Assembly (NCBI GenBank): GCA_018400535.1
Contig: JAGYMQ010000090.1
Span: 1-58,979 of the forward strand
Source of the DNA: Candidatus Cloacimonadota bacterium
Lineage (GTDB): Bacteria; Cloacimonadota; Cloacimonadia; Cloacimonadales; TCS61
Length of the DNA stretch: 58,979 bases
Direction: 5' to 3'
In this document: piece after piece, positions 1,026 to 31,208 of the stretch
How the letters are laid out: every line of letters begins with the position of its first letter
Numbering within the stretch: position 1 is the first letter of the stretch
The notes under the pieces: generated by a model
Databases searched by the model: none
What the model was told of the DNA's origin: nothing
Seen by the model: only the letters and a program-made list of their open reading frames with translations
Translations under genes and position numbers: made by a program

Positions 1026-1038
1026 TCTGGAGACATTA

Positions 1039-1958: not shown

Positions 1959-1969
1959 AGGGAGCTATT

Positions 1970-2812: not shown

Positions 2813-2824
2813 GAAGGAATAACT

Positions 2825-3103: not shown

Positions 3104-3119
3104 AATGGGAGCTTAACTA

Positions 3120-4113: not shown

Positions 4114-4124
4114 GAGATGAAACT

Positions 4125-4738: not shown

Positions 4739-4748
4739 AGAGGATAAC

Positions 4749-5000
4749 ATGGCAAAAACGAAAGCTACAAAAATCGGCATTGTTGTGAGTGATAAAATGG
4801 ATAAGACCATTGTTGTCAACGTCGAAAGGCAATTCAAACATCCATTGTATAAAAAGATAGTTAGAAAGAATAAAAAGTTTAAAGCTCACGATGAAAAAAA
4901 TGAGTGTAATATCGGAGACAAAGTAGAAATTGTCGAAAGTAAACCGATCAGCAAACAAAAAAAATGGGCTTTAAAACAGATAATTGAACGTAGAAAATAA
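4749..5000 (+). CDS. rpsQ: 30S ribosomal protein S17
   Basis: 83 aa. [14 protein letters not shown]...HPLYKK is S17-like. Confidence 0.95.
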
Positions 5001-5011
5001 AGGAGTTTGCT

Positions 5012-5380
5012 ATGATCCAAGCTCAAACTAAATTAACCGTCGCAGATAATTCCGGAGCAAAAAAAGCTCAATGCGTCAAAGTTATTGGCGGTTCTGCCAG
5101 AAGATATGCCAGTATCGGCGATGAAATTATCGTGGCGATCAAGACGGCTATTCCTAATAGCAAAATAAAAAAAGGGACTTTGCAACGAGCAGTCATCGTG
5201 AGAACCAGCAAAGAAATTTCCAGAAAAGATGGATCTTACATCAAATTTCAAGATAATGCTGCTGTTATCATCGATGAAAGAGGAGAACCGATCGCTACCC
5301 GTATCTTTGGTCCAGTAGCACGAGAATTGCGCGAGAAGCATTATTCTAAGATCATTTCTCTGGCACCAGAGGTTTTGTAG
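5012..5380 (+). CDS. rplN: 50S ribosomal protein L14
   Basis: 122 aa with [17 protein letters not shown]. Confidence 0.97.
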
Positions 5381-5388
5381 GAGTTAAT

Positions 5389-5715
5389 ATGGCAAATAAG
5401 AAAAACAAAATGCGGATTAAAAAAGGTGATACTGTTGTTGTTATCTCAGGAGAATACAAAAACGTGAAAGGTCAAGTTCTGAAAGCTTTACCAAAAACTA
5501 ATCGGGTGATCGTGGAAAAGGTTAATATGATCAAAAAACATGTTCGTCCCAATCAACAGAATCAGCAAGGTGGCATCATCGAGCAAGAATCACCGATACA
5601 TGTATCCAATGTGAAGCTTTTCAATGATAAGATCGATGATGTGACAAGAGCGGTTTTTAAAAAAGTGAAAGATTCCAGGATCAGAGTTTGTCAAAAAACA
5701 GGTGATGAGATCTAA
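5389..5715 (+). CDS. rplX: 50S ribosomal protein L24
   Basis: 108 aa. KOW motif IKKGDTVVVISGEYKNVKGQV. Confidence 0.95.
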   Translation: MANKKNKMRIKKGDTVVVISGEYKNVKGQVLKALPKTNRVIVEKVNMIKKHVRPNQQNQQGGIIEQESPIHVSNVKLFNDKIDDVTRAVFKKVKDSRIRVCQKTGDEI

Positions 5716-5730
5716 AAAAGGAGCATCAAA

Positions 5731-6270
5731 ATGAATAGACTACACAAGAAATTCAAAGAAGAAGTCATTCCTGAAATGATGAAGCAATTTGAATACAAGA
5801 ATGTGAACCAAGTTCCCAAGCTGGCAAAGATCTCTTTGAATATGTCGGTGGGTGAAGCCACCGAAAATAAGGCACTTTTGGATAATGCTGTGAAAGAAAT
5901 GATCCAGATATCTGGTAGGAAACCAATCATCACAAAAGCAAAGAAATCGATTTCGAATTTCAAATTGCGAGAAGGTATGCCGATCGGTTGCAAGGTAACT
6001 TTGCGCCGTGAGATAATGTATGAATTTTTGGATAGATTGATATCGATCTATATTCCTCGCGTCAGAGACTTTCGCGGCGTCTCTCCTAAATCTTTTGACG
6101 GTCGCGGAAATTATACGCTGGGAATAAAAGAACAAACGATCTTTCCTGAAATAGATTATGATAATATCGATGCCCTCAGAGGTTTGGGAATTTCAATCAT
6201 AACAACTGCGGAGACTGATGACGAAGCGCGTGAATTGCTTCGAAAACTTGGTTACCCTTTAAAAAAGTGA
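5731..6270 (+). CDS. rplE: 50S ribosomal protein L5
   Basis: 179 aa. [20 protein letters not shown] is L5-like. Confidence 0.96.
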
Positions 6271-6286
6271 AATAAAAGGAGTCATT

Positions 6287-6472
6287 TTGGCAAAAAAATC
6301 TTGGGTTGTAAAACAAAAAAGAGAACCAAAATTCTCTACCCGGAAATATAGCAGATGTAAAGTTTGTGGACGTTCCAGAGCATATATGAGAGATTTTGGT
6401 ATCTGTCGTATTTGTTTCAGAAAATTAGCTTCGGAAGGTAAGATCCCCGGAGTGAAAAAAGCAAGTTGGTAA
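6287..6472 (+). CDS. rpsN: 30S ribosomal protein S14, type Z (zinc-ribbon form)
   Basis: 61 aa. TTG start. Cys pairs in [21 protein letters not shown]. Confidence 0.95.
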
Positions 6473-6484
6473 AAGGAGAAAATA

Positions 6485-6898
6485 ATGAGTTTAACTGATC
6501 CGATCGCTGATGCTATTACTAAGATCAGGAACGCATATCGGGCCGATCATAAGACTGTGGCAATCAATTTTAGCAAGATCAATGAAGCGATTGCAAAAAT
6601 CTTGGATGAAGAAAATTTTATTAATAGTTATGAACTTTACGAACGAGATGTCAGAAAAAACATCACTCGCAAAAAAATCTTTATAAATCTGCGATACACA
6701 AATAGTGGTAAACCAGTACTAAAAGGAATCGAGAGAGTGAGCAAACCAGGTTTGCGTGTTTATGTGAATTCAAAAAATATTCCTTCCGTCTATAATAATA
6801 CGGGTTGTGCGATCATTTCCACCAGTAGAGGTGTGATGGTTGATCGTGATGCCAGAAAAGAAAAAGTCGGCGGAGAATATATCTGTAAAGTCTGGTAG
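6485..6898 (+). CDS. rpsH: 30S ribosomal protein S8
   Basis: 137 aa with MSLTDPIADAITKIRNA. Confidence 0.96.
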   Translation: MSLTDPIADAITKIRNAYRADHKTVAINFSKINEAIAKILDEENFINSYELYERDVRKNITRKKIFINLRYTNSGKPVLKGIERVSKPGLRVYVNSKNIPSVYNNTGCAIISTSRGVMVDRDARKEKVGGEYICKVW

Positions 6899-6907
6899 GG
6901 AGGAAAT

Positions 6908-7486
6908 ATGTCACGAATTGGAAATACTCCTGTTAAGTTCAACAAAGATCTAAAAATCAATATTAAAAATGATCAGATCACGATCTCCGGTAAAAAAGGA
7001 GAATTGTCTTGTGAGATAAAAAAAGGCATCAGTATCAAACAGCAAAATGATGAATTGATCGTGGAAAGAAGTGATGATTCCAAACAACAAAAATCTTTTC
7101 ACGGTTTGGTTCGTTCACTGATCCAAAATATGATCATTGGGCTCACTGAAGGTTATATCAAAGAATTGCAGGTTATCGGAACTGGATACACAGCAGAGAT
7201 CCTTGGTCCTTGGCTACGTCTGAATGTGGGTTTTGCTCATGATATTTTGCTGGAGATACCTGATAGTATCACGGTCGAAGCAGAAACTGTGCCCCGACGA
7301 GAACAAGGTCCTTTGGGTGTGCAGGCAAAGATCAAGGTGAGTGGAATAGATAAAGAAGTTGTCGGAAAATTTGCCGCTGAGATAAAAAGCTGTCGTCCGC
7401 CGATCAATTATGCAACTGGAAAGGGCATCAGATTCAAAGGTGAATATGTCCGTATCAAGCCAGGTAAGACAGCGCAAACGGCATAA
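6908..7486 (+). CDS. rplF: 50S ribosomal protein L6
   Basis: 192 aa. MSRIGNTPV start and two L6 repeats. Confidence 0.95.
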   Translation: MSRIGNTPVKFNKDLKINIKNDQITISGKKGELSCEIKKGISIKQQNDELIVERSDDSKQQKSFHGLVRSLIQNMIIGLTEGYIKELQVIGTGYTAEILGPWLRLNVGFAHDILLEIPDSITVEAETVPRREQGPLGVQAKIKVSGIDKEVVGKFAAEIKSCRPPINYATGKGIRFKGEYVRIKPGKTAQTA

Positions 7487-7496
7487 TGAGGTAATC

Positions 7497-7871
7497 ATGA
7501 AAAAAAAGAGATCTGAACAAAAAAAGATATATAATCGCAGAAAACGTAAATATTCGATAAGAAAGAAAATATTTGGGACAAAAGATGCTCCAAGATTATC
7601 AGTTTATCGAAGTCTAAAAAATATAAGCGCTCAATTGATCGATGATGCAAATAGCAAAACATTGTTAAGCTTATCTACAAACTCGAAAGATATTAAGATC
7701 GACAAATCAAAAAAGAAAGTAGAGCAAAGTTTCGAGCTGGGCAAAAAATTCGGGGAGATTGCCAAAAAAGAAAATATCGACAAAATAAAATTTGATCGTA
7801 ATGGCTATCTTTTTCATGGTAGAGTGAAAGCTCTTGCTGATGGTATGCGTAAAGCAGGCTTGAAATTTTAG
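7497..7871 (+). CDS. rplR: 50S ribosomal protein L18
   Basis: The track ORF is 7410-7871. I chose the ATG at 7497 because the earlier part overlaps rpl[20 protein letters not shown] is L18-like. Confidence 0.92.
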
Positions 7872-7879
7872 GAGGAACT

Positions 7880-8443
7880 TTGAAACATAGACAGAAACAA
7901 AAAAAGAACAAAAAACACAATCAACAAGAAAGCCAGTATGAAGTAGAAAAATTGGTCAGCACGAATCGTGTGGCTAAGGTCGTGAAAGGCGGCAGAAATT
8001 TTAGCTTCAATGCCACTGTAGTGGTTGGAAATAAAAATGGTGAAGTCGGTGTCGGTGTCGGTAAAGCAAATGAGATCGTTTATGCGATCAACAAGGCGAA
8101 AGAACGGGCTGGCAAAGATATGTTTCGAGTTCCTATTGTGAATGGCACGATCCCGCACGAATATATTGGAAAATTTGGATCAAGCCGAATACTACTTAAA
8201 CCAGCATCACCAGGAACAGGAATTATTGCTGGTGGACCTGCTCGCGCAATTCTGGAAGCAGCTGGTGTGGAAAATATCCTCACAAAATCTTTGGGCTCAA
8301 ACACGCCTTCAAACGTTGTTAAAGCTTGTGTGAATGGTTTGAAAAATCTGCGCACAATATCGCAAGTAGCAAAATTAAGAAATAAAACAGTCGCAGAATT
8401 GACTGGTCAAGAAAAAAAGTCTGATCAGGAGGAAACAGAATGA
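7880..8443 (+). CDS. rpsE: 30S ribosomal protein S5 (with about 20-aa basic N-terminal extension)
   Basis: 187 aa. TTG start. [25 protein letters not shown] is the S5 core. Confidence 0.95.
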
Positions 8444-8781
8444 AACTGAAAATTACGCAAATTCGCAGTACGATCGGGCGCAAAGAAGATCAAAAAAGAA
8501 CGATAACTGCATTGGGTTTGGGCAAGATCAGGCGAACGAAGATTCATGATGACAATTCTGTGATCAGAGGAATGATCAACAAAGTTTCACATTTGCTTTC
8601 TGTCGAAGAGTTTGAAGAAGATATGATCTCTGATAAAAAAAATGAGAGCGTTTCATCCCAAAATGAAAAAAACACAGAAATTGAACAAGCAGGATTTGAA
8701 GACGAATTAGAATCCAAAATCAATGATTCAGCAAAAGAGACGACAGAGCAAGACAATAGCGAAGTAATTGATAAAGAGTAG
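8440..8781 (+). CDS. rpmD: 50S ribosomal protein L30 with an acidic C-terminal extension of about 55 aa
   Basis: Residues 1-57 ([29 protein letters not shown]...VSHLL) form an L30 fold-length core. The ORF then continues in frame to 113 aa through an E/D/S-rich tail. Confidence 0.9.
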
Positions 8782-8795
8782 TTGAATAAGGAGAA

Positions 8796-9251
8796 ATGAT
8801 GAATCTTCATGAAATGAAAAGACCGAAGATCAAAAAAAATAAAAAAAGGCTTGGTAAAGGTCATGGTAGTGGCTGGGGTGGCACTTCTGGCAAAGGTCAT
8901 AAAGGACAAAAGTCTCGTTCTGGAGGAAATATTCCTGCCTGGTTTGAAGGTGGACAAATGCCTTTGCAAAGAAGATTACCCAAGCGCGGATTCAATAATC
9001 GTAATAAACAAGATTATCGGATCGTGAATCTATATACTTTACAGAAGATCGATAAAACAGAATTTGATATTTCACTACTTGAAGAATTGCATTTGATCCG
9101 AAAAGCGCAGGCCAATGAAAAAGCACCTGTGAAGATTTTGGCGACAGGCTTCGAAATTTTTGATAAAAAGATATCGATCAAAGCGAATGCCTTTTCCCAA
9201 AAAGCAAAAGAAGTGATCGAAAGCAAAGGTGGCAAAGCGGAGGTAGTCTAA
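8796..9251 (+). CDS. rplO: 50S ribosomal protein L15
   Basis: 151 aa. KRLGKGHGSGWGGTSGKGHKGQKSRSG is L15-like. Confidence 0.95.
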   Translation: MMNLHEMKRPKIKKNKKRLGKGHGSGWGGTSGKGHKGQKSRSGGNIPAWFEGGQMPLQRRLPKRGFNNRNKQDYRIVNLYTLQKIDKTEFDISLLEELHLIRKAQANEKAPVKILATGFEIFDKKISIKANAFSQKAKEVIESKGGKAEVV

Positions 9252-9252
9252 A

Positions 9253-10560
9253 GTGTTAAAAAGTATTAGCAATATTTTTAAAATTCCCGATCTTAAGAAA
9301 AAAGTCCTATTCACCGCACTGATCTTGATCATTTACCGTTTGGGAAGTTTCATTCCAATCCCTGGCATAAATGCAAAAGCGATCGAAGAATTCATCGGTT
9401 CCGCTTCTCAAGGTGGAGGAAACTTGTTTGGTATGTTTGATCTCTTTGTGGGTGGAAATTTGGGAAGGGCCTCTGTTTTTGCTCTGGGTATCATGCCATA
9501 CATTACCACGTCGATCGTGATGCAGCTTTTGGGCGGCGTTATTCCGTTTTTTGAAAGATTGAAAAAAGAAGGCGCTGAAGGTCAAAAAAAGATCGCACAA
9601 TACACTCGTTATGGAACTGTCGTGGTTGCCAGCTTCAATGCTATCGGCATCACAATGTTTTTGCGGTCAATTGAAGGAGCTGTTTATAATCCAGGTTTCT
9701 TCTTCATTTTTACCAGCGTCCTCACAATGGTCACAGGCGTGATGTTCATTATGTGGCTGGGAGAACAGATCACAGAAAATGGGATCGGCAACGGAATATC
9801 TTTGATCATTTTTGCTGGAATCATTGCCCGTTATCCGCAAGGTTTCATCAGTATGTTTCAGATGGTGCAAGCTGGTGCGATGAGCATCTTCATGGTGGTT
9901 GCTGTCCTCGTTGTTATGATAGCAGTGACTGCTTCTGTTGTTTTGGTGACAGAAGGTGTGCGTAAAATTCCAGTTCAATATGCCAAAAGGATCGTAGGTA
10001 GAAAAGTGTATGGTGGACAGAGCACGCATATTCCTTTGAAAGTAAACACAGCAGGCGTGATCCCGATCATTTTTGCTCAGGCGATTTTGATGTTTCCCAG
10101 AACAATAGCGACCTTTTTTAAAGATAGTGATTTTATGAATACAATTGTGCAATTGCTATCACCTGGTGCATTTCTCTATACATTTTTCTATGTTGGATTA
10201 ATCATTTTCTTTGCCTATTTCTATACTGCAATGGTTCTCAATCCGATCGAAATGGCAGAGAATATGAAAAAATATGGTGGTTTTATTCCGGGTAGAAAAC
10301 CTGGTAAAAGAACTGCTGATTATATTAATAGCGTACTGGTTCGGATCACTTTACCTGGAGCGATCTTCTTTGCCTTTGTAGCGGTTCTTCCTCAATTTAT
10401 GCAGCAATGGGCAAATTTACCTTTCTATTTTGGTGGAACCGGATTGATCATTATTGTCGGTGTTGCTCTGGATACATTGCAACAGATCGAATCACAGCTC
10501 GTAATGCGTCACTACGATGGTTTTATGAAAAAAGGTAAGTTGCGTGGTAGAAAAGGTTAG
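9253..10560 (+). CDS. secY: Preprotein translocase subunit SecY
   Basis: 435 aa, polytopic. GTG start right after the rplO stop. GIMPYITTSIVMQLL is the SecY signature. Confidence 0.97.
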   Translation: MLKSISNIFKIPDLKKKVLFTALILIIYRLGSFIPIPGINAKAIEEFIGSASQGGGNLFGMFDLFVGGNLGRASVFALGIMPYITTSIVMQLLGGVIPFFERLKKEGAEGQKKIAQYTRYGTVVVASFNAIGITMFLRSIEGAVYNPGFFFIFTSVLTMVTGVMFIMWLGEQITENGIGNGISLIIFAGIIARYPQGFISMFQMVQAGAMSIFMVVAVLVVMIAVTASVVLVTEGVRKIPVQYAKRIVGRKVYGGQSTHIPLKVNTAGVIPIIFAQAILMFPRTIATFFKDSDFMNTIVQLLSPGAFLYTFFYVGLIIFFAYFYTAMVLNPIEMAENMKKYGGFIPGRKPGKRTADYINSVLVRITLPGAIFFAFVAVLPQFMQQWANLPFYFGGTGLIIIVGVALDTLQQIESQLVMRHYDGFMKKGKLRGRKG

Positions 10561-10596
10561 TTCTTTGAAAATGAATATGATAAAACGGGCGAGAAG

Positions 10597-11355
10597 ATGA
10601 TCGCGATAAAAAGTCAACAAGAAATTGAAAAAATGCGAGAAAGTAATCGCATCGTTGGTGATCTATTGGTCAATCTTAAAAAGGTTATTAAACCGGGAAT
10701 TTCTACGCTTCAAGTGGAAAAATATGCCAATAATTTCATTTTGGAACAAGGCGGTATTCCTGCTTTCAAAGGTTATTCCATACCTGGTCTATCTCCCTTT
10801 CCCGCGGCTATTTGTGCTTCGATCAATTCCTGCATTGTCCATGGTATTCCCAGAAAGGATGTGATCCTTGAAGAAGGTGATATTATCGGTGTGGATGTTG
10901 GCGTTCTTAAAGATGAATTTTATGGAGATGCAGCTTACACTTATCGTGTTGGCAATATCTCAGAGCGCGCAAATAAATTAATGCAGATCACAAAAGAAGC
11001 ATTAAATATCGGAATATCTCGTGCGAAAGTTGGTAATCGTGTGGGCGATATTTCCTACGCGATCGGGTCTTTCGTTGCAAAAAAGGGTTATTATGTTGCA
11101 GATAATTTGACAGGTCATGGAATCGGAAGAAATTTGCATGAAGATCCAATTGTTCCAAATAATGGATTTGCTGGTAAAGGACCTCGTTTGCGAAAAGGTA
11201 TGACAATAGCAATCGAACCGATGGTGAATATCGGAACGAATGAGGTTCTGGAAAATGGCTGGGAATTCTTTACTGGTGATGATTCATTGTCAGCGCATTT
11301 CGAAAAGACAATATTGATAACAAATGAAGAACCCGAAATTTTATCTATTTGGTAA
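10597..11355 (+). CDS. map: Type I methionine aminopeptidase
   Basis: 252 aa with the CASINSCIVHGIP, GDIIGVDVG and HGIGRNLHEDP metal-ligand motifs. Confidence 0.95.
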   Translation: MIAIKSQQEIEKMRESNRIVGDLLVNLKKVIKPGISTLQVEKYANNFILEQGGIPAFKGYSIPGLSPFPAAICASINSCIVHGIPRKDVILEEGDIIGVDVGVLKDEFYGDAAYTYRVGNISERANKLMQITKEALNIGISRAKVGNRVGDISYAIGSFVAKKGYYVADNLTGHGIGRNLHEDPIVPNNGFAGKGPRLRKGMTIAIEPMVNIGTNEVLENGWEFFTGDDSLSAHFEKTILITNEEPEILSIW

Positions 11356-11371
11356 AAAAGGATAATTTATT

Positions 11372-11590
11372 ATGGCAAAAGAAGGCGTAATTGAAGTAGA
11401 AGGTGAAGTACTCGAAGCATTACCCAATATGACGTTCAAGGTGCAGCTGGAAAATGGGCACGAGATCTTGGCTCATAGTTCCGGGAAAATAAGAATGCAC
11501 TATATTAAGATCTTACCTGGCGATAAAGTGAAAGTGGAATTATCTCCCTATGATCTTAATCGCGGAAGAATTGTTTATCGTTATAAATAG
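11372..11590 (+). CDS. infA: Translation initiation factor IF-1
   Basis: 72 aa with [41 protein letters not shown]. Confidence 0.97.
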
Positions 11591-11600
11591 GAGTGAAAAA

Positions 11601-11717
11601 ATGAAAGTCCAGGCATCTGTAAAAAAAATCTGTAAAGATTGTAAGATAATCAAAAGAAAAGGCGTGATCAGAGTTATTTGCTCTGCCAATCCAAAACATA
11701 AACAACGTCAAGGTTGA
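11601..11717 (+). CDS. rpmJ: 50S ribosomal protein L36 (zinc-binding form)
   Basis: Not in the ORF track. The ATG at 11601 gives [38 protein letters not shown] and a TGA stop at 11715-11717. GGAG lies upstream. It sits in the canonical infA-rpmJ-rpsM position. Confidence 0.93.
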
Positions 11718-11729
11718 TAGGAGGTTTAG

Positions 11730-12077
11730 TTGGCACATATAGCAGGAATTGATTTACCAAAAGATAAACGAATAGTCATCGGTTTGACTTATATCTTTGG
11801 GTTGGGTAAATCTTTGGCACAAGAGATCCTGAAAAAAGCAGGAGTCGAAGAGAATATCAAGGTGAAAGATCTTTCAATGGAACAGGAAAAAGCGCTGCGT
11901 GAGATCATCCAAAATGATTATATTGTCGAAGGCGAATTGAGAACACAAAGAACTTTGGACATCAAACGTTTAATGGAAATTGACTGTTATCGCGGTATCA
12001 GACATAAAAAAAGTATGCCCGTTCGCGGTCAACGCACTCATACAAATGCGAAAACCAGACGTAAACGCCGTCGCTAA
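11730..12077 (+). CDS. rpsM: 30S ribosomal protein S13
   Basis: 115 aa. TTG start. [13 protein letters not shown] and CYRGIRH. Confidence 0.96.
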
Positions 12078-12100
12078 GATAAAAAGACAGGAGAATATCA

Positions 12101-12514
12101 GTGGCAAAAAAAATTAGAAAAAATACAAAAGCAAGAGCCAGAATCAAGAAAAAGAAAATCCGTGTTTCTTTTAATGAAGCAGTTGCTACGATCCATTCAA
12201 GCTTCAATAATACTGTGGTTTCTTTGACAGACAAAGCTGGCAACGTGCTGACCTGGTCAAGTGGTGGAAAGATCGGTTATAAAGGTTCAAAAAAGAGCAC
12301 GCCCTTTGCTGCTCAACTGGCAGCAGAAGAAGTAGCAAAAGCTGCTTTGGAAATGGGAATTAATAAAGTGCAGGTGAAAGTCAAAGGCCCAGGTGGCGGT
12401 AGAGAATCTGCAATTCGATCTCTGAATGCCAATGGACTCGAAGTAACAATGATACAGGATACCACACCATTACCACACAATGGTTGCAGACCAAGAAAAG
12501 CTAGGAGAATTTAA
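12101..12514 (+). CDS. rpsK: 30S ribosomal protein S11
   Basis: 137 aa. GTG start. [16 protein letters not shown] and [13 protein letters not shown]. Confidence 0.96.
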
Positions 12515-12518
12515 CATT

Positions 12519-13154
12519 ATGGCAAGATATACAGGACCATCATGCAAACTTTGTAGAAGAGAAGGAAAAAAACTTTTCCTAAAAGGTGCACGCTGCAGTT
12601 CTCAAAAATGTGCTATGGAAAAAAGACCAAATATTCCAGGTGAACACGGAAGTGGAAAAGGCTTTCGAAAACGGTTGAGCGATTATGGAGTTCACCTTCG
12701 TGAAAAACAAAAAGTGCGTAGAATTTATGGTGTTTTAGAAAAGCAATTCCGCCGATATTTTGCTATCGCTGCCAAAAAATCTGGAGTTACTGGTGACAAT
12801 CTTTTACAATTATTGGAAACCCGACTGGACAATGTTGTCTATCGCATGGGCTTTGCTCCATCTCGAAAGGCAGCTCGTCAAATCGTGCGACATGGTCATA
12901 TCTGCGTGAATGAGAAAAAAGTCGATATTCCTTCCTATCAGGTGAGAGCGGAAGATGAAATATCAGTCAAAGAAAATAAACAGCAGATACCTTTGATCCA
13001 AGAAGCATTGGAAGCAGCCACAGAAATTGATGCGATTGAATGGTTTCAAGTAGATAAAGATCATTTGAGCGGCAAGATTCTGAATATTCCAAAGCGTGAT
13101 CAAATTCCGCTGGATGTCGATGAAAGACTCATCGTTGAGTATTATAGTAAGTAA
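12519..13154 (+). CDS. rpsD: 30S ribosomal protein S4
   Basis: The track ORF is 12480-13154. I chose the ATG at 12519 (MARYTGPSCKLCRREG) to avoid overlap with rpsK. Confidence 0.94.
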   Translation: MARYTGPSCKLCRREGKKLFLKGARCSSQKCAMEKRPNIPGEHGSGKGFRKRLSDYGVHLREKQKVRRIYGVLEKQFRRYFAIAAKKSGVTGDNLLQLLETRLDNVVYRMGFAPSRKAARQIVRHGHICVNEKKVDIPSYQVRAEDEISVKENKQQIPLIQEALEAATEIDAIEWFQVDKDHLSGKILNIPKRDQIPLDVDERLIVEYYSK

Positions 13155-13166
13155 AAGGAGATTGAA

Positions 13167-14180
13167 ATGAAATTTCTTGAACCTTTACAATTACCTGAAA
13201 AAGTTCAAGTGGATGAAGAAACGTATTCTTCTACAAAAGGACAATTTGAGATCGGACCGTTAGAACCAGGCTTTGCTATCACGGTCGGCAACACGTTCAG
13301 AAGAGTTTTGCTCTCTTCGATCCAGGGCGCTGCTGTGCGCTTTGTGAAAATCGAAGGCTTGCATCATGAATTCACGCCGATACCAGGTTCCGATTCCGAT
13401 TTTATAGATCTTATCCTTCGCCTAAAACAGCTTGTGATCAAAACAGAATCCATTAATGAAAAGAAAATGGTTCTCGAACATAAGGGAATTGGAAAAATTA
13501 CAGCAGCCGAGATCGAAGATAATGAAGAATTTCAGGTCATAAACAAAGATCTGGTTTTATTGGAAATGACAGAGGATGTGGAATTTCGAATGGAAATTTG
13601 GATCGGAAGTGGAAGAGGATATGAATCAGCTGAAAATCATGATCTCGAAGATAAACCAGTTGGTGCTGTTCCAATCGATTCGATCTATTCTCCTGTCAAA
13701 GAGGTTAGATATTCAGTGGAAAATCAGCGTGTGGGAGAAAGGATCGATTATGATAAATTGATCTTGGAAATGACAACCGATGGCAGCATCGATCCAAAAG
13801 ATGCTCTCTATCTTTCAGCAAAGATTTTACGCGACCTTTATGACAAGATCGTTCTTTTTGAAACAGAACCAGAATACATCGAAGAGATCGAGATGGATCC
13901 TGAACTGGAAAATCTGGAAAAGATCCTCGACAGCAGCGTGCATGAGCTTGAACTTTCGGTGAGATGTAGCAATTGTCTTTCTACTGCAAACATTGATAAG
14001 ATCGGAGAATTGGTTTCCAAGACAGATAATGAAATGTTGAAATTTCGTAATTTTGGAAAAAAATCTTTAGAAGAGATAAAAATGTTGCTATCCAAATATG
14101 ATCTTTCGCTGGGTATGGATGTGAAAGGACTCAGAAAAAAGATCGAAGATGCAAAAAATCAAGTGATTATCAAAAAATAA
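13167..14180 (+). CDS. rpoA: DNA-directed RNA polymerase subunit alpha
   Basis: 337 aa. GFAITVGNTFRRVLLSSIQG in the N-terminal domain and ELSVRCSNCL in the C-terminal domain. Confidence 0.97.
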   Translation: MKFLEPLQLPEKVQVDEETYSSTKGQFEIGPLEPGFAITVGNTFRRVLLSSIQGAAVRFVKIEGLHHEFTPIPGSDSDFIDLILRLKQLVIKTESINEKKMVLEHKGIGKITAAEIEDNEEFQVINKDLVLLEMTEDVEFRMEIWIGSGRGYESAENHDLEDKPVGAVPIDSIYSPVKEVRYSVENQRVGERIDYDKLILEMTTDGSIDPKDALYLSAKILRDLYDKIVLFETEPEYIEEIEMDPELENLEKILDSSVHELELSVRCSNCLSTANIDKIGELVSKTDNEMLKFRNFGKKSLEEIKMLLSKYDLSLGMDVKGLRKKIEDAKNQVIIKK

Positions 14181-14191
14181 GGAATGACATT

Positions 14192-14578
14192 ATGAGACAC
14201 AGAGTGAAAGGAAGAAAATTCGGAAGAGAAAAAGGACACCGTGACCTGATGATGAAAAATCTGGTTAAATCACTGGTCGAGCACGGCAGGATCAATACCA
14301 CGCAAGCAAAAGCAAAAGAATTGCGCGGCTTGGCTGAAAGGATTATTACTTATGGGAAAAAAGGAACTGTGCATCATCGAAATCTGGCTTATAAATTCCT
14401 GCAAAATAGAACATTAGTAAAAAAAGTCTTCGATGAGATCGCTCCAAAATTCAAAGACGTTGAAGGTGGCTATACACGCGTGATCAAAAATGGTTACCGA
14501 AAAGGTGACTGCGCTCCAATGGCGATCATCGAATTCGTCGGCCACAGTATTGAAAAAGAAAACAAAGCAAAAAAATAG
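14192..14578 (+). CDS. rplQ: 50S ribosomal protein L17
   Basis: 128 aa with MRHRVKGRKFGREKGHR. Confidence 0.96.
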   Translation: MRHRVKGRKFGREKGHRDLMMKNLVKSLVEHGRINTTQAKAKELRGLAERIITYGKKGTVHHRNLAYKFLQNRTLVKKVFDEIAPKFKDVEGGYTRVIKNGYRKGDCAPMAIIEFVGHSIEKENKAKK

Positions 14579-14720: not shown

Positions 14721-16055
14721 ATGAAAAAATTGAATTTCCATAAAATTCTGCATTTATTGGAAAACAAAAAATTTATCTCCCTATCCAAAATTCTGAATAG
14801 ATCCCATCCTGCTGACATTGCTGAGATCATAAATGAGCTACCAGAAGAATTGCAGATCAGAGTATTTAAATTGTTAGGTCTGGAAAATTCTGCTGGTGTT
14901 TTATCTGAAGTTCGTGAAGAAGTTCTGAAAAATATTTTGAAAAATACCAATAAAAAACGGCTGTTTTCAATACTTAATGAATTGGAATCGGACGAAGCGA
15001 CAGATATTGCTTCAGAATTGGAAGAAGACTTGCTGAAAGAAATATTGGAAAATATCGACGAAAAAGATTCGCAGGAGATCAAACAGCTGCTCGTTTATGA
15101 TGAAGATTCGGCCGGCGGCATCATGCAGAAAGAGATCATTTCTGTCGAAAAAGAAATGCTGCGTGATGAGATGATCACTCATATTCGTGAAAATTATCAA
15201 GATGTGGGAAATCTTTATTATGTTTTTGTAGTCGATTCAGAGAATAAATTGATCGGAATTTTGGAAGTTTCCAAGCTCTTACTTTGTAAAGCAGAAAAAA
15301 GAGCAAGTGATCTCATGGAAAAAGATGTTATCTTTGCTTATGTTGATCAAGACCAGGAAGAGGTGGCAAATATTTTCCGTAAATATGATATTTACATTTT
15401 ACCAGTCGTGGATCGGAAAGAGCATTTATTAGGTAGGATAACGGTTGATGATATCATCGATGTGATCGATGAAGAAGCTTCTGAAGATGCATATAAAATG
15501 GTTGGGCTGGACAATGAAGATAAGGTTTTCACCAGTCCTTTCAGTTCTGTGCGCAGAAGATTGCCCTGGCTGGTTTTGAATCTTTTCACCGCTCTGCTGG
15601 TTTCCAGCGTGGTAGGAATCTTTGAAGAGACAATTGCAGAACTATCATTTCTCGCTGTTCTAATGCCGATCGTTGCAGGGTTGGGTGGTAATTCAGGAAC
15701 TCAAACTCTGACAGTTATCACGCGCGGAATTGCTTTGGGTGAACTAACGATCCATAACACTTCGCGTGCGATTCTTAAAGAGATAACAGTTGGCGTGATC
15801 AATGGCTTGATGATCGGTTTGGCCGCGATGATTATCGCTTATTATCTGAAAGGGAATTTATGGTTAGGAGCGGTGCTCGGAATCTCGATGATCTGTAATA
15901 TGTTTATTGCTGGATTAGTTGGCTCGCTCATTCCGGTTTTAATGAAAACGCTCAAGATCGACCCAGCGCTTGCTTCCAGCGTGATCATCACAATGCTGAC
16001 CGATATCGGTGGATTTGCGTCTTTTCTAGGATTAGCAACGATTATTCTACTATAG
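14721..16055 (+). CDS. mgtE: Magnesium transporter MgtE
   Basis: 444 aa. Acidic MgtE N-domain, CBS pair and C-terminal 5-TM domain with GNSGTQT and TDIGGF motifs. GGAG RBS. Confidence 0.93.
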   Translation: MKKLNFHKILHLLENKKFISLSKILNRSHPADIAEIINELPEELQIRVFKLLGLENSAGVLSEVREEVLKNILKNTNKKRLFSILNELESDEATDIASELEEDLLKEILENIDEKDSQEIKQLLVYDEDSAGGIMQKEIISVEKEMLRDEMITHIRENYQDVGNLYYVFVVDSENKLIGILEVSKLLLCKAEKRASDLMEKDVIFAYVDQDQEEVANIFRKYDIYILPVVDRKEHLLGRITVDDIIDVIDEEASEDAYKMVGLDNEDKVFTSPFSSVRRRLPWLVLNLFTALLVSSVVGIFEETIAELSFLAVLMPIVAGLGGNSGTQTLTVITRGIALGELTIHNTSRAILKEITVGVINGLMIGLAAMIIAYYLKGNLWLGAVLGISMICNMFIAGLVGSLIPVLMKTLKIDPALASSVIITMLTDIGGFASFLGLATIILL

Positions 16056-16075
16056 ATTTCAGAAAGAAAGTTTTG

Positions 16076-17488
16076 CTATTTTTCGATAGGAAGTTCCATT
16101 TTTTGCCAACCGTAAAATCCATCTTCCAAATTATAAACTTCTTCGAAATCCAATTCTCGCATTATCTCAGCAGCTTTTGCGCTGCGAATGCCTTTTTGAC
16201 AATAGACCAGATATATCTTTTTTCGGTCCAAAAGATCGATGATATGTTTGAATTTTTTCTTTTGGACATCGATATTTTTTGCTTTGGGCAAATGACCTTC
16301 AGCAAATTCGGAATCGGAACGAACATCCAAGATAAATAATCTCCCATTTTCCAAATATTCATTATACAATTCTTGTCCTTGCTCTAAAGAGATATTTTTG
16401 GATAAAAAAACGGTGCTTCTTTTCTTTGGGGGAAAAATTACCAGACCATTTACCTGCAGCTTGATGATGCTGTTTTGTGGATCATTGGAGATCACGTCTA
16501 TCTCTGTCCTGATCGTGTTGATCTTCTTCGGATTCGTTTGCAAATGGATCTTGCCTTGTTTTCCACTGACTAAAAGACTATCGAAAGAGACCAGCTTGAC
16601 GCGTGGGTTGTTCAATTGTACATTATGAATGCGAAGAGGTTTTTTCCCACGATTTTCGAAATGGAATTCCACTTTTCCCACCTGTCCAATTTCGATCTTA
16701 CCAAAATCTGCTTTTTTGTTTTGAAAAACAATCTGTGGTGCTTTTTGGAGTTGCTCTGGGGTCAGCTGGGAAAAATCTTGTTTCACATTTGCCCTGACCT
16801 GAAGATAGCCTGTCGTTACGCCAGCTTGATCTTCAAAATTAAATCTTATCAGATCATTCGTATTGCCGAAAAGAACCCGTTTTTTCGTATCGAAACAAAC
16901 AGTGATCGAATCAAGTTTCCCAGCTGCAATGTTCTGATCTCCAAAAGAAAAATCGATGTATGATGGTTTTGAAATAACAGCTATTTTGACATTTTCAGCC
17001 GAAGAATTTTTTATCTTGAAAGTTACACACTCTTTTTGTGGAAAGAAAATATCACCAAAATTTATAACGCGTTCCTCACTGCTCAAAGTTCCTAAACGGT
17101 GTCGCAATTTTCCAGGCGTTGGAATGACATTTCCTTCCAAATAAAGCTGGTCTATGCGTCCTGAATTTTCCCAATAAATTCTTGTTTTTTTTCGAAATTT
17201 ACCCGGTCGATTATTGGATTTGTATGCTGTTTCCACATAACCAGAATCGCCAGGTGTGATGATCTCGGTTGACCAACCGACCGCTGTGCAGCCTCAACCT
17301 GGAGTAACTTTCAAGATTTTGACGCTTGTTTCTCCATAATTATAGAATTTGAAACGATATTTGTGTGGTCCTTCTTCTTCTTTGATCTCACCAAGATCAT
17401 ACATCTTTTTTTCAAATTTGACATTGACCTCAGCAAAGATCGTTAGAGCAAATAAAAAAAACAGTATTAACGATAATATTTTTTTCAT
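16076..17488 (-). CDS. Secreted DUF1573-repeat / rhodanese fusion protein with one in-frame TGA at 17296-17294. Either a candidate selenoprotein or a disrupted gene.
   Basis: Track ORFs 17488-17294 and 17236-16076 are in one frame (1413 nt) with a single TGA between them and no other stop. Read-through gives ...ILKVTPG-[TGA]-GCTAVGWSTEIITPGDSGY..., the DUF1573 CGCT motif position. Signal peptide MKKILSLILFFLFALTIFA. C-terminal rhodanese domain with the YCQKGIRS loop. Confidence 0.7.
17265..17280 (-). promoter_or_regulatory. SECIS-like hairpin downstream of the in-frame UGA
   Basis: On the minus-strand RNA: UGA, then 13 nt, then UCGGUU-GGUC-AACCGA. This is a 6-bp stem with a GGUC apical loop at +23 to +26 from the U of UGA. 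Confidence 0.5.
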
Positions 17489-17648
17489 ATAATGTTCCTT
17501 TTCGCTTGATTGCGTTCATCGAGAAGAGAACAAAATCTATGTCAAGCAGGAATACAGATTTTCCTGATCTTCAAATCGATTTTTATATTGACATTAATGA
17601 TAATACATGATGAAAAGCAAAAAATATTTTTCCTGAAATTGAGGTGAT

Positions 17649-18203
17649 ATGTTAGAAACAATAAACGATGAATTGAAAAGATTGCGTAATATTTTCCAAA
17701 AAATGGATTTCCTTTCAGCGTGCAAATATTTCTGGTTTTTAGTCTATAAGACGCTACGACCAAAAAGTCACAAATTCGAATTAACCAGAGAACGTTTGCT
17801 GCAAAGATCTGAACGTGAGGATTTCCAGATCAAGATAATAAATTCTTTTGCAGAACTTTCTAAGGAACAATTACAAATCTTGCAAGAAGAGATGCTCTAT
17901 AATACGATCTATGATCTAAAAAATTATTTTACAGAAAAGGAAGTGATGTGGCTGGGTTTTTATCAAGAAAAATTAGCAAGCTACACTTTCATTTTATTAG
18001 ACAAACAGAAAAAAGAAGCGTTGTTATCTCATTCAGAGACTTTTGCCAGATATCGCGGGAAAGGATTATCTCCATTGTTATTATATCTAATTTGTAAATA
18101 TTATTTCGAGAATGGTTACAAAAAAATCTTTTCGATAGTTCATTTTAGCAATAAACAAAGTATCAAAGTCAAAGAGAAATTGGGATTTAAAAAATTGTAT
18201 TGA
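17649..18203 (+). CDS. GNAT-family N-acetyltransferase
   Basis: 184 aa. The acetyl-CoA loop-like ARYRGKGLSPLLL is followed by a beta-bulge region. GAGG RBS. Confidence 0.65.
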   Translation: MLETINDELKRLRNIFQKMDFLSACKYFWFLVYKTLRPKSHKFELTRERLLQRSEREDFQIKIINSFAELSKEQLQILQEEMLYNTIYDLKNYFTEKEVMWLGFYQEKLASYTFILLDKQKKEALLSHSETFARYRGKGLSPLLLYLICKYYFENGYKKIFSIVHFSNKQSIKVKEKLGFKKLY

Positions 18204-19495: not shown

Positions 19496-20854
19496 ATGAA
19501 AAATGCACCGGCTCTGATCGTGATTATAATTGCGGTTGTAGCGATAATGATCGCTATCGGACTTGTTATTGCTAACCTTACACATAAATATGCGGTGGAC
19601 AAAGCGAAGGAACTGGCGCTGGAAATGGAAGCTAAAAAAGAGGCGCAAAGGGAAGAAAGCGAATATTTTCCTGTTTATGAAGAATATTTTGCTCTGCAGA
19701 TCATGGCGAGTAATAACTATGAAAAGGTGGAACATCTTCAAGATAAATTGCAAAAAGCGGGATATCAGACGAAGATCACAAAAGTGAAACGAGAAGGAGA
19801 AATCTTATATCGTTTGAGATTGGAAGAACTTTATAAAGAAGAAAAAGCGATTGAGCTTGGCGAAAAATTGAAATCAAGTTATCCTGATATCAGCAGTTAT
19901 TGGCTGGAAGAAAGAAAAACTGAATTAGTGCAAAAAAATGAAAAAAAGCCTATTCAAGAAAAAGCTGAAAAGCAGGAAATTCAGCCAATCCAGCCAGAAC
20001 CCAACATAGCTTCAACACCACAAAAATATGAAATCCAGTTAATGGCGACAGTCGATTTTGAGAAAATAAAAAGGATCAGTTCGAGCTTGGAAGCGATAGG
20101 ATATCCGACAAAAATTTTAGTGGTCAAAAAGGGAGGGACGAATTTCTATCGATTGCGAATTGATGGTGCTTTTGTGGAAATGGAAGCAAATAATCTGGGA
20201 AAGGAAATTGTCGCAAAGTCTCCTTCTATCAGCGATTTTTGGTTAGATGAAAAATTAACAGGCAAAGGAATTGCAACCCCTGTTAAAACAAAAAAAACAG
20301 AATCTAGACAAACTTTTACCCACGGCGAGTATAAAGTTCAATTATTAGCAAATCCAAACCTTTCATTTGTGGAAGAAAGGAAAAAGCTATTAGAAGACCA
20401 AGGTTATGCTGCGGAGATCACTTCTGCTGTCGTGAAAGGTAAAAAATTCTATCGATTGCGCACAGCAAATGCCTACACTCGAAGTTCTGCAGAGAAAATT
20501 GGTCAGGAAATCAAAAATAAATTCGATTTCATCGCAGATTTTTGGGTAGCAAAAGTGAAAGGTGAACAAAGCGTTGTGAGAAAAACTCCGACAGAAAAAG
20601 TTCAAACGCCAGCAGTGAAAGAAAAAGAAAAGGAATCAAAGACGAGAAAAACCTTAGAAGTAATGGTTTGCAATAAGGATAATGTAAATATTCGGATTGG
20701 ACCGGGAGATTACTATGCACTTGATCCGATCGGAAAACTGATGAAAGGGATCACAGTATTCGTTTTGGAAGAAAAAAATGGGTGGGTACGTTTTACGATC
20801 TCAAAAAACGATGAATCCTGGTCAGGATGGGTGAATAAAAAATATTTAGATTGA
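19496..20854 (+). CDS. Membrane-anchored protein with three SPOR repeats and a C-terminal bacterial SH3 domain
   Basis: 452 aa with an N-terminal TM helix. Three repeats of about 75 aa, each with Y.(I/L)Q(I/L)(M/L)A...GY...(I/V)......YRLR. C-terminus NVNIRIGPG...GWVRF...GWVNKKYL is SH3b-like. Confidence 0.75.
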   Translation: MKNAPALIVIIIAVVAIMIAIGLVIANLTHKYAVDKAKELALEMEAKKEAQREESEYFPVYEEYFALQIMASNNYEKVEHLQDKLQKAGYQTKITKVKREGEILYRLRLEELYKEEKAIELGEKLKSSYPDISSYWLEERKTELVQKNEKKPIQEKAEKQEIQPIQPEPNIASTPQKYEIQLMATVDFEKIKRISSSLEAIGYPTKILVVKKGGTNFYRLRIDGAFVEMEANNLGKEIVAKSPSISDFWLDEKLTGKGIATPVKTKKTESRQTFTHGEYKVQLLANPNLSFVEERKKLLEDQGYAAEITSAVVKGKKFYRLRTANAYTRSSAEKIGQEIKNKFDFIADFWVAKVKGEQSVVRKTPTEKVQTPAVKEKEKESKTRKTLEVMVCNKDNVNIRIGPGDYYALDPIGKLMKGITVFVLEEKNGWVRFTISKNDESWSGWVNKKYLD

Positions 20855-26432: not shown

Positions 26433-26444
26433 GATAAAAATTGG

Positions 26445-26467
26445 AAACCACTGCAAAACAGTGGTTT
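26445..26467 (+). promoter_or_regulatory. Second leader hairpin (9-bp perfect stem)
   Basis: AAACCACTG-CAAAA-CAGTGGTTT, immediately upstream of the rimP RBS. Confidence 0.45.
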
Positions 26468-26491
26468 AATCTTATTTACAGGAAAGATGAT

Positions 26492-26947
26492 ATGTTGAAA
26501 AAAATTGAAGCTATTGCCAAAAACGTCTGTGCGAAACATGGAGTTTCACTCTATGACGTCGAATTGAAGCACGCCGCCAAAGGTCTTGTCATTGTGATCT
26601 ATATTACAAAGATCCAAGGAATCGGTGTGGAAGATTGCTCGGTGGTCAGTCGAGATATTGGACGTACTATGGAAGAAGATAATCTGGTTAATTCCAGATA
26701 TTTTTTGGAAGTATCTTCTCCAGGCCTGGAGCGAAAACTGAAATTGAAAAAACATTATGTCAGTGCAATCGGTGAAAAAGTTAAGATAACATATAACGCA
26801 GAAAACGAAAGCAGAATGGCTATCGGTATATTAAAAGAAGTTGATCGCAATGAGCTCATACTTGAATTAGAAGCAGAAGAGCTCACTATTGCATTTAATG
26901 ATATCAAAAAAGCAAAAACGTATTTTGATTATAAAAAAGGTAATTGA
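26492..26947 (+). CDS. rimP: Ribosome maturation factor RimP
   Basis: The track ORF starts at TTG 26441. I chose the ATG at 26492 with a GGAAAG RBS. LEVSSPGLERKL is the RimP signature. Synteny with nusA. Confidence 0.88.
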   Translation: MLKKIEAIAKNVCAKHGVSLYDVELKHAAKGLVIVIYITKIQGIGVEDCSVVSRDIGRTMEEDNLVNSRYFLEVSSPGLERKLKLKKHYVSAIGEKVKITYNAENESRMAIGILKEVDRNELILELEAEELTIAFNDIKKAKTYFDYKKGN

Positions 26948-26964
26948 GAAAATTAGAGGTAAAT

Positions 26965-28197
26965 ATGAGCACGAATTTAATGGGGACACTCACTCAATTA
27001 GCAAATTTGAAACAGTTAGATAAAAAGCAATTAGAATCTATCATTACTGATGGACTATTTCAGGCGATCTCAAAAAAATTGACTTCAGAAAATGATCTGA
27101 AGATCAATGCAGATTTTGATTCCAATAATGTGGAAGTACAATTTAACAAGATCGTTGTCGAAAGAGATATGTCGCTTGGTGAAATCAGTTTGGAAGATGC
27201 CCGAAAAATAGATCCGGATTTGGAAATCGGCGATACAATTCCCGCAGAGATGGAACTTTGTGATTTTGAGCCAAAAGTGATCAAAAATGCCAGAAAAGCC
27301 ATTTTGGAACGGATCAAATCTCTAGAAGAAGATCGCATTATGTTCGATTATGAAAAACAAAAGAATCAGATCGTCTCAGGTCGCGTCAGAAAAGAAGATT
27401 ATAATGGATATTTAATCGATATCGGATATACAAGCGCATTGCTTCCTATCGATGAACAGGTCGATGATGAATATTATAAAGCGGGCGATATTATTCGTGC
27501 CTATGTCGTGAATATCCGGAAAAGAAAAAAGGACGTTGTCGTAATTCTGTCTCGCACCAGACCAGAATTTGTGAAGAGATTGTTTGAAAACGAAATCCCG
27601 GAAATTTCCAATGAATCTGTTCAAATCAAAAAGATCGTAAGAGAACCCGGAATAAAATCAAAAGTTGCAGTGAAATCCCAGAAAGAAAAAGTCGATGCTG
27701 TCGCTGCTTGTCTGGGACCACACGGTATGCGCATAGAATCGATCCGCCAGGAGCTTAATGGAGAACAGGTTGATATCGTGCTTTGGGATAATTCACCAGA
27801 GCAGCTGATAGCGAATGCGATCGGTGCTGACCTTGTGGATAAGGTCTATCTGGCAGAGCGCGGTAAATTTGCACGGATCATTGTGAGCGAAGAAAATAAA
27901 AATCTGGCTATTGGTAAAGGAGGAAAAAACGTTAAATTAGCAGCGAAATTAACAGACTACAAACTTGATATTTATCTGGAAACAGAATTTGAGGAAAAAA
28001 TATCAGAAGAACGCAGAATTACCAGTCACGTGAGTGATCTGGACGGAGTAACAGCTAATGTATCAGAAATATTGAGGACACATGGTTACACTTCGGTTCA
28101 GGATATTTATGAAGCGACCATCGAGGAACTTTGTAATCTCGAGGGTTTAGGCGAGAAGACTGCTCGCAAAATAAAAGAATCAGCGAAATTATTTTAG
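26965..28197 (+). CDS. nusA: Transcription termination/antitermination factor NusA
   Basis: ATG at 26965 after an AGAGG RBS. S1 and two KH domains (IGKGGKNVKLAAKLT) and a C-terminal HhH. Confidence 0.95.
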   Translation: MSTNLMGTLTQLANLKQLDKKQLESIITDGLFQAISKKLTSENDLKINADFDSNNVEVQFNKIVVERDMSLGEISLEDARKIDPDLEIGDTIPAEMELCDFEPKVIKNARKAILERIKSLEEDRIMFDYEKQKNQIVSGRVRKEDYNGYLIDIGYTSALLPIDEQVDDEYYKAGDIIRAYVVNIRKRKKDVVVILSRTRPEFVKRLFENEIPEISNESVQIKKIVREPGIKSKVAVKSQKEKVDAVAACLGPHGMRIESIRQELNGEQVDIVLWDNSPEQLIANAIGADLVDKVYLAERGKFARIIVSEENKNLAIGKGGKNVKLAAKLTDYKLDIYLETEFEEKISEERRITSHVSDLDGVTANVSEILRTHGYTSVQDIYEATIEELCNLEGLGEKTARKIKESAKLF

Positions 28198-28202
28198 GCA
28201 AA

Positions 28203-28442
28203 ATGGTAAATCAAGCTTCCAATGCAAACCATATTCCTCAACGAACTTGTGTTATATGCAAAAAGAAAACTGCCCAAAAAAACCTGATCAGATTTGTAAT
28301 TTTGCAAAATGAAATTGTTTTCGACCTGAAGAGAAATTTAAAGGCAAAAGGGCATTATGTGTGTGATGCGAATGATTGCATTTGCAAATTAGAAAGATGG
28401 AGAAAAAGAAAAATTAAAAATGCAAAAAGAAAAGATTCTTAG
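28203..28442 (+). CDS. ylxR: YlxR/DUF448 family RNA-binding protein
   Basis: 79 aa with RTCVICKKK...LIRFV. Canonical position after nusA. Confidence 0.85.
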   Translation: MVNQASNANHIPQRTCVICKKKTAQKNLIRFVILQNEIVFDLKRNLKAKGHYVCDANDCICKLERWRKRKIKNAKRKDS

Positions 28443-28728
28443 TTTATTGCACCTGACGAGAAAAGCAGGAAAATTACAATTTGGATTCGATGCCTGCGAA
28501 CGTTCTTGTTTGCGGGGCAAGGCAAAATTATTGATCTACGCTTCTGACTTGAAAGATAGAAGAAAAAGAGATTACGTCACGATGGCAGAAGCTTTTAATG
28601 TTAAGATTATTGAATTTGCCAGCAAACAGACTTTCCAAGAATCTTTCAAAATGCGCAAAGTGGGTATTTTATCCATCGAAGATAAAAATTTTGCGAAAGG
28701 CATCACAGCAAAATTGGAGGAACAATGA
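28420..28728 (+). CDS. L7Ae/YlxQ-family RNA-binding protein
   Basis: 102 aa. LTRKAGKLQFG...LLIYASD is L7Ae-like. Canonical position before infB. Confidence 0.8.
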   Translation: MQKEKILSLLHLTRKAGKLQFGFDACERSCLRGKAKLLIYASDLKDRRKRDYVTMAEAFNVKIIEFASKQTFQESFKMRKVGILSIEDKNFAKGITAKLEEQ

Positions 28729-31196: not shown

Positions 31197-31208
31197 GCAG
31201 GTGATATT

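Follow-up and report, generated by a model that had tools for sequence, protein, structure and literature searches.

Selenoproteins that carry a DUF1573 domain are already catalogued. A "DUF1573 domain-containing protein" (pfam07610, motif UGC) is tabulated among the selenoproteins in PMC9312934 (2022) and PMC13188914 (2026), and both tables cite the OS_HP2 family of the deltaproteobacterial symbionts of Olavius algarvensis (Zhang and Gladyshev 2007; PMC1976440). A model named "OS_HP2 family (seleno)protein" (NF041425) exists in NCBIfam, and from this name, together with the order of the reviews' tables, we infer that OS_HP2 and the DUF1573 table entry are the same family. Here, a related gene is described on the minus strand of a 58,979-nucleotide (nt) contig from a Candidatus Cloacimonadota bacterium (JAGYMQ010000090.1, assembly GCA_018400535.1), the whole of which is referred to below as the 59-kb window. 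The in-frame TGA at positions 17296-17294 of this gene is very probably a selenocysteine (Sec) codon and not the end of the gene, and would be decoded by SelB and a selenocysteine insertion sequence (SECIS) so as to place Sec within a U-G-C motif.

The window protein and OS_HP2/DUF1573 share the immunoglobulin-like (Ig-like) domain of PF07610 and a predicted Sec-Gly-Cys sequence in which Sec takes the place of the first CGC-block Cys; in both cases Cys-containing homologues exist and the function is unassigned. OS_HP2 comes from Deltaproteobacteria, whereas the window protein is of cloacimonadotal origin and is composed of three Ig-like domains and a C-terminal rhodanese. The NF041425 model returns 82.8 bits for the window protein, below its cutoff of 100 (residues 29-110 over profile positions 5-85 of 98). 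Scores for the Cloacimonadota relatives lie between 54 and 92 bits, and the Cys-type relatives from Bacteroidia pass with 109-139 bits. Judged from its sequence, the window protein is a relative of OS_HP2 with the same Sec position, and not a member by the curated criterion. Owing to this sub-cutoff score and to the split or mistranslated public annotations described below, it is treated here as a new rhodanese-fused, Cloacimonadota-wide variant. What is new is this rhodanese-fused subfamily, predicted to be exported and distributed across the Cloacimonadota, along with its compact and conserved putative SECIS; the domain family itself is not. The initial annotation of the locus had not counted DUF1573 among the selenoprotein families, and the two tables that list it with a UGC motif show this to have been wrong.

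The gene and its predicted elements are located as follows.

16076..17488, minus strand: complete predicted selenoprotein gene, encoding 470 residues followed by a TAG stop (16078-16076), with an ATG start at 17488-17486
17294..17296, minus strand: predicted Sec codon, an in-frame TGA at codon 65, first position of the U-G-C motif
17265..17280, minus strand: SECIS-like hairpin UCGGUU-GGUC-AACCGA, with a 6-bp stem and a GGUC tetraloop at 17274-17271
17432..17488, minus strand: predicted Sec-type signal peptide (Sec here being the secretory pathway), residues 1-19, MKKILSLILFFLFALTIFA followed by EV, from direct reading, with no lipobox Cys
17126..17422, minus strand: DUF1573 / OS_HP2-type Ig-like domain 1, residues 23-121, carrying U65-G-C67
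16445..17085, minus strand: two further Ig-like domains (DUF1573 / HYDIN-VesB type), approximately residues 135-348, without the CGC motif
16100..16366, minus strand: C-terminal single-domain rhodanese, residues 375-463

Translation of 17488-16076 on the minus strand gives 471 codons, among which the TGA at 17296-17294 is the sole internal stop, and the peptide across residue 65 reads VTPG-U-GCTAVGWSTEIITPGDSGYVETAYK. In the list of open reading frames (ORFs), the same span is divided between two minus-strand ORFs that share one frame, 17294-17488 (64 aa, starting with ATG) and 16076-17236 (386 aa, starting with GTG). The interval from the TGA to the GTG at 17236 is composed of 19 sense codons, is free of stops and encodes GCTAVGWSTEIITPGDSGY. 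This retranslation agrees with the initial account of two ORFs in a single frame, separated by one TGA and spanning 471 codons. A Shine-Dalgarno-like AAGGA box is situated at 17500-17496, 7 nt upstream of the ATG at 17488, and the length of the read-through product agrees with that of 33 full-length homologues (455-495 aa).

The Sec reading is convincing because of the comparative data, in which 37 relatives keep both the TGA and the hairpin. An alignment of homologues, a check that the initial annotation had proposed, comprises 39 distinct contexts; TGA fills the matching codon in 37 of them and TGC (Cys) in the remaining two, and the TGA-bearing copies keep the hairpin. Nearly all of the 39 copies are labelled Candidatus Cloacimonadota, and their protein identity is 28-40%. 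Fifteen full-length loci were found in a scan of species-representative genomes, comprising 12 from Candidatus Cloacimonadota (Tenebribacter, Cloacimonadales), one from a Cloacimonadales metagenome-assembled genome (MAG), one from an "uncultured bacterium" and one from an "uncultured archaeon"; a metagenome scan added further homologous copies to the set. Most copies read through to approximately 470-480 aa without a second stop. For the genes of at least 450 codons (n = 33), which have pairwise protein identities of 28% to 100% (median 39%), TGA is the sole internal stop, and the two TGC forms contain no internal stop.

Protein databases present the same codon in other guises. The full-length relatives recovered by protein search, 30-38% identical, either have a "W" at the stop position or start just after it, and their DNA has TGA at that codon in every case. 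The "W" is present because these proteins were translated with code 4, and the shortened entries stem from a split gene call and represent only its second part, the first being a separate upstream DUF1573 ORF of 64 aa. Cys occupies the Sec column in the database homologues P0013, P0015, P0016, P0017 and P0020, among which P0016, P0017 and P0020 are more distant Bacteroidia relatives with a CGC motif at the site. The original suggestion that UGA replaces the first Cys of the DUF1573 C-G-C block is thereby upheld, with TGA in 37 homologues and Cys in others.

The hairpin downstream of the TGA invites comparison with the SECIS of E. coli fdhF, in which a GGUC apical tetraloop (GCA-GGUC-UGC) is located at +22..+25. 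In the window the hairpin starts 13 nt after the UGA, and its GGUC loop is located at +23..+26, counted from the U of UGA. Both the placement of this hairpin in the initial annotation and its account of the fdhF loop were confirmed against the respective sequences. The two elements are short in-coding stems immediately 3′ of the UGA, and both are of low stability. In contrast to the fdhF element, the window hairpin has a stem of unrelated sequence that lacks a bulged U, and it is not extended by a long, conserved lower stem. Bacterial SECIS elements, as sought by bSECISearch, are stem-loops placed shortly 3′ of the UGA with a G in the apical loop. Across the family, the consensus CCAGUU-GGUC-AACUG(G) occurs at the same offset as the window hairpin, and the RNAalifold consensus is a 5-bp hairpin, CAGUU-GGUC-AACUG (+18..+31).

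Codon usage within this short region is distinctive. In a codon alignment of the 33 genes, 73 conserved columns encode an amino acid that has at least three codons, and the four lowest codon entropies among them (0-0.2 bits) belong to Pro70 (CCC, 29/29), Ser71 (AGT, 32/32), Ser73 (TCA, 33/33) and Thr74 (ACT, 32/33). The other 69 columns have entropies of 0.55-2.31 bits, with a median of 1.54, and Gly66, Cys67 and Thr68, just ahead of the hairpin, wobble freely. Together with Trp72, codons 70, 71, 73 and 74 spell CC-AGU-UGG-UCA-ACU-G. All 51 occurrences of the 10-mer GTTGGTCAAC in the 351 kb of DNA examined fall at the hairpin site of this gene family. The window has the sole divergent stem (GUC-GGU-UGG-UCA-ACC-GAG), in which A19-U30 is replaced by G19-C30, and C17-G32 or C17.A32 by U17-A32; these changes are compensatory in the predicted stem, where pairing is kept. 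Together, these patterns clearly point to selection on the hairpin as RNA.

Several observations nevertheless weigh against Sec insertion. Neither selA, selB, selD nor a selenocysteine tRNA (tRNASec) was found in the 59-kb window or in the related loci examined. ARAGORN detected no tRNASec in the window and 36 loci, and no tRNA of any kind in the window, and tblastn searches of this DNA with E. coli SelA and SelB matched nothing but GTPase domains, including that of IF-2, which was the single SelB-like match in the window. The fold of the 71-nt region is no more stable than that of shuffled sequence (z = 0.23), and in a naked 60-nt window RNA the hairpin loses to a competing structure in which the UGA region takes part. 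Rfam 15 gave no match, either for the whole window at the gathering score or for 17100-17400 at E ≤ 10. The evidence from covariation comes from one divergent sequence, that of the window, as the four other pairs are invariant. Lastly, the two TGC forms have kept the hairpin despite their divergence from each other, and so a role other than Sec insertion is possible.

These points differ in their weight. The alternative fold would be blocked on the translated message for as long as the ~13 nt that follow the A site are covered by the ribosome. On its own, the window hairpin has a folding energy of -5.4 kcal/mol, compared with -4.2 for the minimal fdhF element; since its stability is not above that of shuffled sequence and the naked RNA prefers another structure, stability was dropped as evidence and the comparative data were used instead. 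The negative Rfam result weighs little, because each curated model is tied to particular lineages and the element measures only 16 nt. With respect to the machinery, a "Cloacimonetes type" of tRNASec with a 7+5 acceptor/T stem has been described (PMC5330540, citing Mukai 2016). This was the only literature found on Cloacimonadota selenoproteins, and the selenoproteome of the phylum is barely mentioned in the open literature.

The TGC forms (L008:3644 and L009:328) keep the hairpin codons exactly (GCC AGT TGG TCA ACT GGA). The two share 52% protein identity and, at identical residues, 52% codon identity, and both are without the rhodanese catalytic Cys (YFIIGKDF and YYVIGYDF). Their hairpin is possibly a fossil SECIS, but it may instead have a second function or direct Sec insertion at UGC. 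It is unlikely that the element is still active in these forms, whether for SelB-driven insertion of Sec at UGC by a tRNASec of altered anticodon or as a pause for the folding or export of the U/C-G-C turn. Recoding of sense codons to Sec was reportedly described by Mukai and colleagues in 2016; if true of these genes, UGC-to-Sec insertion would occur in the Cloacimonadota lineages of L008 and L009.

Explanations of the TGA that do not involve Sec have to account for the same conservation. Were UGA read as Trp, Cys or Gly by a suppressor or near-cognate tRNA, with the hairpin as a general stimulator of read-through or pausing, its persistence in the two TGC forms would hint at a role unrelated to Sec, and the failure to find Sec machinery in the window or loci, or an Rfam SECIS match, would be as expected. 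Such leaky read-through, however, poorly explains why the TGA is kept in 37 of 39 diverged copies with no drift to a sense codon. It also leaves aside that the UGA aligns with the Cys of a C-G-C motif in a domain catalogued with UGC (PMC9312934; PMC13188914), that the GGUC loop has the sequence and placement of the loop to which SelB binds in fdhF, and that Cloacimonetes are reported to have a tRNASec (PMC5330540); it is accordingly held to be quite improbable. Still less is to be said for a true stop, by which the locus would be a split gene or pseudogene yielding a 64-residue exported fragment and a 386-residue protein from the GTG at 17236. Gene callers do give this split in NCBI, ENA and JGI records, and two ORFs stand in the ORF list. 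Yet few codons of the family are as well conserved as the 19 that link the TGA to the GTG (GCTxPSWST..PG..G), no Shine-Dalgarno box is present in the sequence upstream of the GTG, and the split would bisect the DUF1573 domain and leave the larger part without a signal peptide. The same "defect" would moreover have to recur in 37 diverged copies with no further decay. A pseudogene had been foreseen in the initial annotation if relatives bore the same stop with no hairpin and a decayed downstream sequence, but the hairpin and frame of the relatives are intact.

An error of sequencing or assembly that turned TGC or TGT into TGA is hardly credible: the TGA is one base from a Cys codon, but it recurs in independent NCBI, ENA, JGI and Logan assemblies from at least 15 species. 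Equally remote is a lineage-wide reassignment of UGA to sense (code 4 or 25) with Trp at the site, as the "W" in database proteins P0002-P0007 and P0011 would have it. Of the 65 window ORFs, 34 end in TAA, 16 in TGA and 15 in TAG, and rplD, rplE and rpsE are among those that end in TGA; the use of TGA by 16 of 65 ORFs implies the standard genetic code. In addition, an in-frame TGA between two coding-looking halves occurs only once in the 59 kb, no other gene is interrupted in the related loci, and the code-4 call P0003 overruns a real TGA stop into non-homologous sequence. Global reassignment is refuted by this stop-codon usage, and TGA is an ordinary stop elsewhere in the window, rplD included, as the initial annotation had held. 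Decoding of the TGA as Sec is thus the reading adopted in what follows.

The protein so encoded is predicted to be exported by means of its signal peptide, and its domains are well supported. With Cys put in place of the internal stop, Pfam DUF1573 (PF07610) matches in three stretches (E 1.4e-43; 147.3 bits versus a cutoff of 26.1), the best of which covers residues 23-121 over profile positions 1-98 of 98, and the HYDIN/VesB Ig-like domain of Pfam is matched as well. The Pfam rhodanese (PF00581) covers residues 375-463 (E 1.5e-18; 67.5 bits versus a cutoff of 22.2), and rhodanese chains of the PDB, among them 6mxv and 3iwh, match down to E 5.5e-15. The predicted catalytic Cys430 is encoded by a TGT codon at 16201-16199 and begins a six-residue loop, C430-QKGIR-S. 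Of the features in the initial annotation, direct reading supports the signal peptide, and Pfam supports the C-terminal rhodanese with its CQKGIRS loop. Its "two further Cys-less DUF1573-like repeats" stand in part: the CGC motif is missing from them, but the middle domain contains C154 and C198, which are not conserved.

An AlphaFold2 model was made of the homologue P0002, with a mean predicted local distance difference test (pLDDT) score of 87.3 and a predicted template modelling (pTM) score of 0.53, in which the arrangement of the domains is unreliable. The model contains an N-terminal signal helix (residues 2-17), three beta-sandwich domains and an alpha/beta rhodanese, with residues 64-67 (G-U-G-C) forming the turn that joins strands 56-63 and 68-72. 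A Foldseek search of the PDB gave no functional clue, its matches being limited to generic Ig domains of the HYDIN/ASH type and to 2qsv, an uncharacterised protein of P. gingivalis.

The YLVYC-x-x-G-x-RS loop of the rhodanese is kept in most TGA-bearing homologues, and the Cys is absent from both TGC forms and from some paralogues. The idea that Sec and the rhodanese Cys strictly go together was rejected, as L023, L049 and L010:2010 have the TGA and no rhodanese Cys. Tandem pairs of TGA-containing paralogues are found at many Cloacimonadota loci (L007:1860/3351, L010:520/2010, L015:345/1787, L021:144/1591 and L046:241/1693). In the L010 pair, the rhodanese Cys is present in the first of two loop sequences (YLVYCKSGIRS) and missing from that of its partner (FILYSDDNMLS).

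Rhodanese and Sec are combined in one polypeptide in the known rhodanese selenoproteins as well (forms 1-5, including NF041203 rhodanese_LYCAU and NF045694 TsoB). TsoB, a rhodanese/DsbD fusion-like protein, further resembles the window protein in coupling the rhodanese to a separate redox-carrier module. In these known proteins, however, Sec is situated in or beside the rhodanese or DsbD, whereas the window protein has a Cys rhodanese and a predicted Sec approximately 365 residues away in an Ig-like domain. It scores 46.4 bits against NF041203 (cutoff 115) and 35.1 bits against NF045694 (cutoff 805). The rhodanese fold and C-x5-R/S loop are also those of PspE, GlpE and Wolinella Sud (PDB 1qxn), and the signal peptide adds to the likeness with periplasmic single-domain sulfurtransferases. 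PspE, GlpE and Sud are, however, stand-alone proteins of approximately 100-140 residues without selenium, whereas the rhodanese of the window is the C-terminal module of a 470-residue multi-domain predicted selenoprotein.

A sequence of events may be proposed for this gene, in which we infer SelB binding, selenium incorporation, export and the chemistry. With a ribosome at the UGA, the first ~13 downstream nt would be held in the mRNA channel, and the hairpin at +17..+32, with its 5-6 bp stem and GGUC loop, would be free to bind SelB-GTP-Sec-tRNASec in the manner of the minimal upper stem-loop of fdhF. Sec would then be inserted, and translation would go on to the TAG at 16078-16076. The resulting 470-residue precursor would leave the cytoplasm of the Cloacimonadota cell by the Sec secretory pathway and reach the periplasm or the cell surface. 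The mature protein would present Sec65-Gly-Cys67 in a beta-turn of its N-terminal domain, followed by two spacer Ig-like domains and a rhodanese bearing Cys430. Once exported, Cys430 could take sulfane sulfur from thiosulfate or polysulfide as a persulfide, or selenium as a perselenide, and the Sec65/Cys67 pair could accept or resolve it through a Se-S intermediate, closing to a selenenylsulfide. An extracytoplasmic sulfur or selenium relay, or a reductase, acting from the rhodanese Cys to the U-x-C pair is tentatively suggested on these grounds. The proposal draws on rhodanese chemistry, on the redox role of selenoprotein motifs and on the chemistry of CxC motifs; a general redox role has been proposed for motifs such as UxxC/CxxU (PMC13188914).

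In public annotation, the family is not recognised as selenoproteins (database proteins P0002-P0011 and P0059; L004:1730). Its genes are either split into pieces of 64 aa and approximately 370-386 aa or translated with code 4 so that W stands at the Sec site, and one shortened product is named "phage shock protein E" by JGI. Reading the TGA as Sec would correct a systematic error of annotation across Cloacimonadota MAGs. It would also add a rhodanese-fused, signal-peptide-bearing subfamily to the DUF1573/OS_HP2 selenoproteins, for whose U-G-C motif the fusion provides the first concrete functional lead, namely extracytoplasmic transfer of sulfane sulfur or selenium. While the finding is not a new kind of biology, the short conserved putative SECIS, CAGUU-GGUC-AACUG (+18..+31), could serve as a search motif for the selenoproteins, for the most part undescribed, of the Cloacimonadota, which are abundant in anaerobic digesters and in anoxic sediments. 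No further selenoprotein candidate emerged when the window and all loci were screened for additional TGA-interrupted genes and for other 5-bp hairpins with a GGTC loop. A perfect 5-bp hairpin, ATCCT-GGTC-AGGAT, is located at 20815-20828 on the plus strand, right after an out-of-frame TGA and near the 3′ end of a SPOR/SH3-domain gene (19496-20854), and is probably due to chance.

The gene itself appears monocistronic. On either side lie a convergent gene for the magnesium transporter MgtE (14721-16055, plus strand) and a divergent gene for a GNAT acetyltransferase (17649-18203, plus strand), and a scan for promoters and terminators across 15900-17800 found nothing above chance. The related loci showed no functional neighbourhood that is conserved among them. 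Searches of 30 neighbouring window ORFs with Pfam and NCBIfam revealed no functional link and no Sec machinery; the neighbours include the genes for MgtE, the GNAT protein, an ATP-grasp protein, the SPOR/SH3 protein and TldD/PmbA, and the nusA-infB operon. The other genes of the window are housekeeping genes, among them radA and mreD-PBP2-rodA. Positions 1-14578 contain the ribosomal protein operons S10-spc-alpha, together with secY, map and rpoA; a cluster of rimP-nusA-(L7Ae-like)-infB-rbfA-DHH/DHHA1 phosphoesterase-truB-ribF extends over 26441-34394. The GC content is 37.5%, and the gene content and stop usage fit a standard-code fragment of a Cloacimonadota chromosome.

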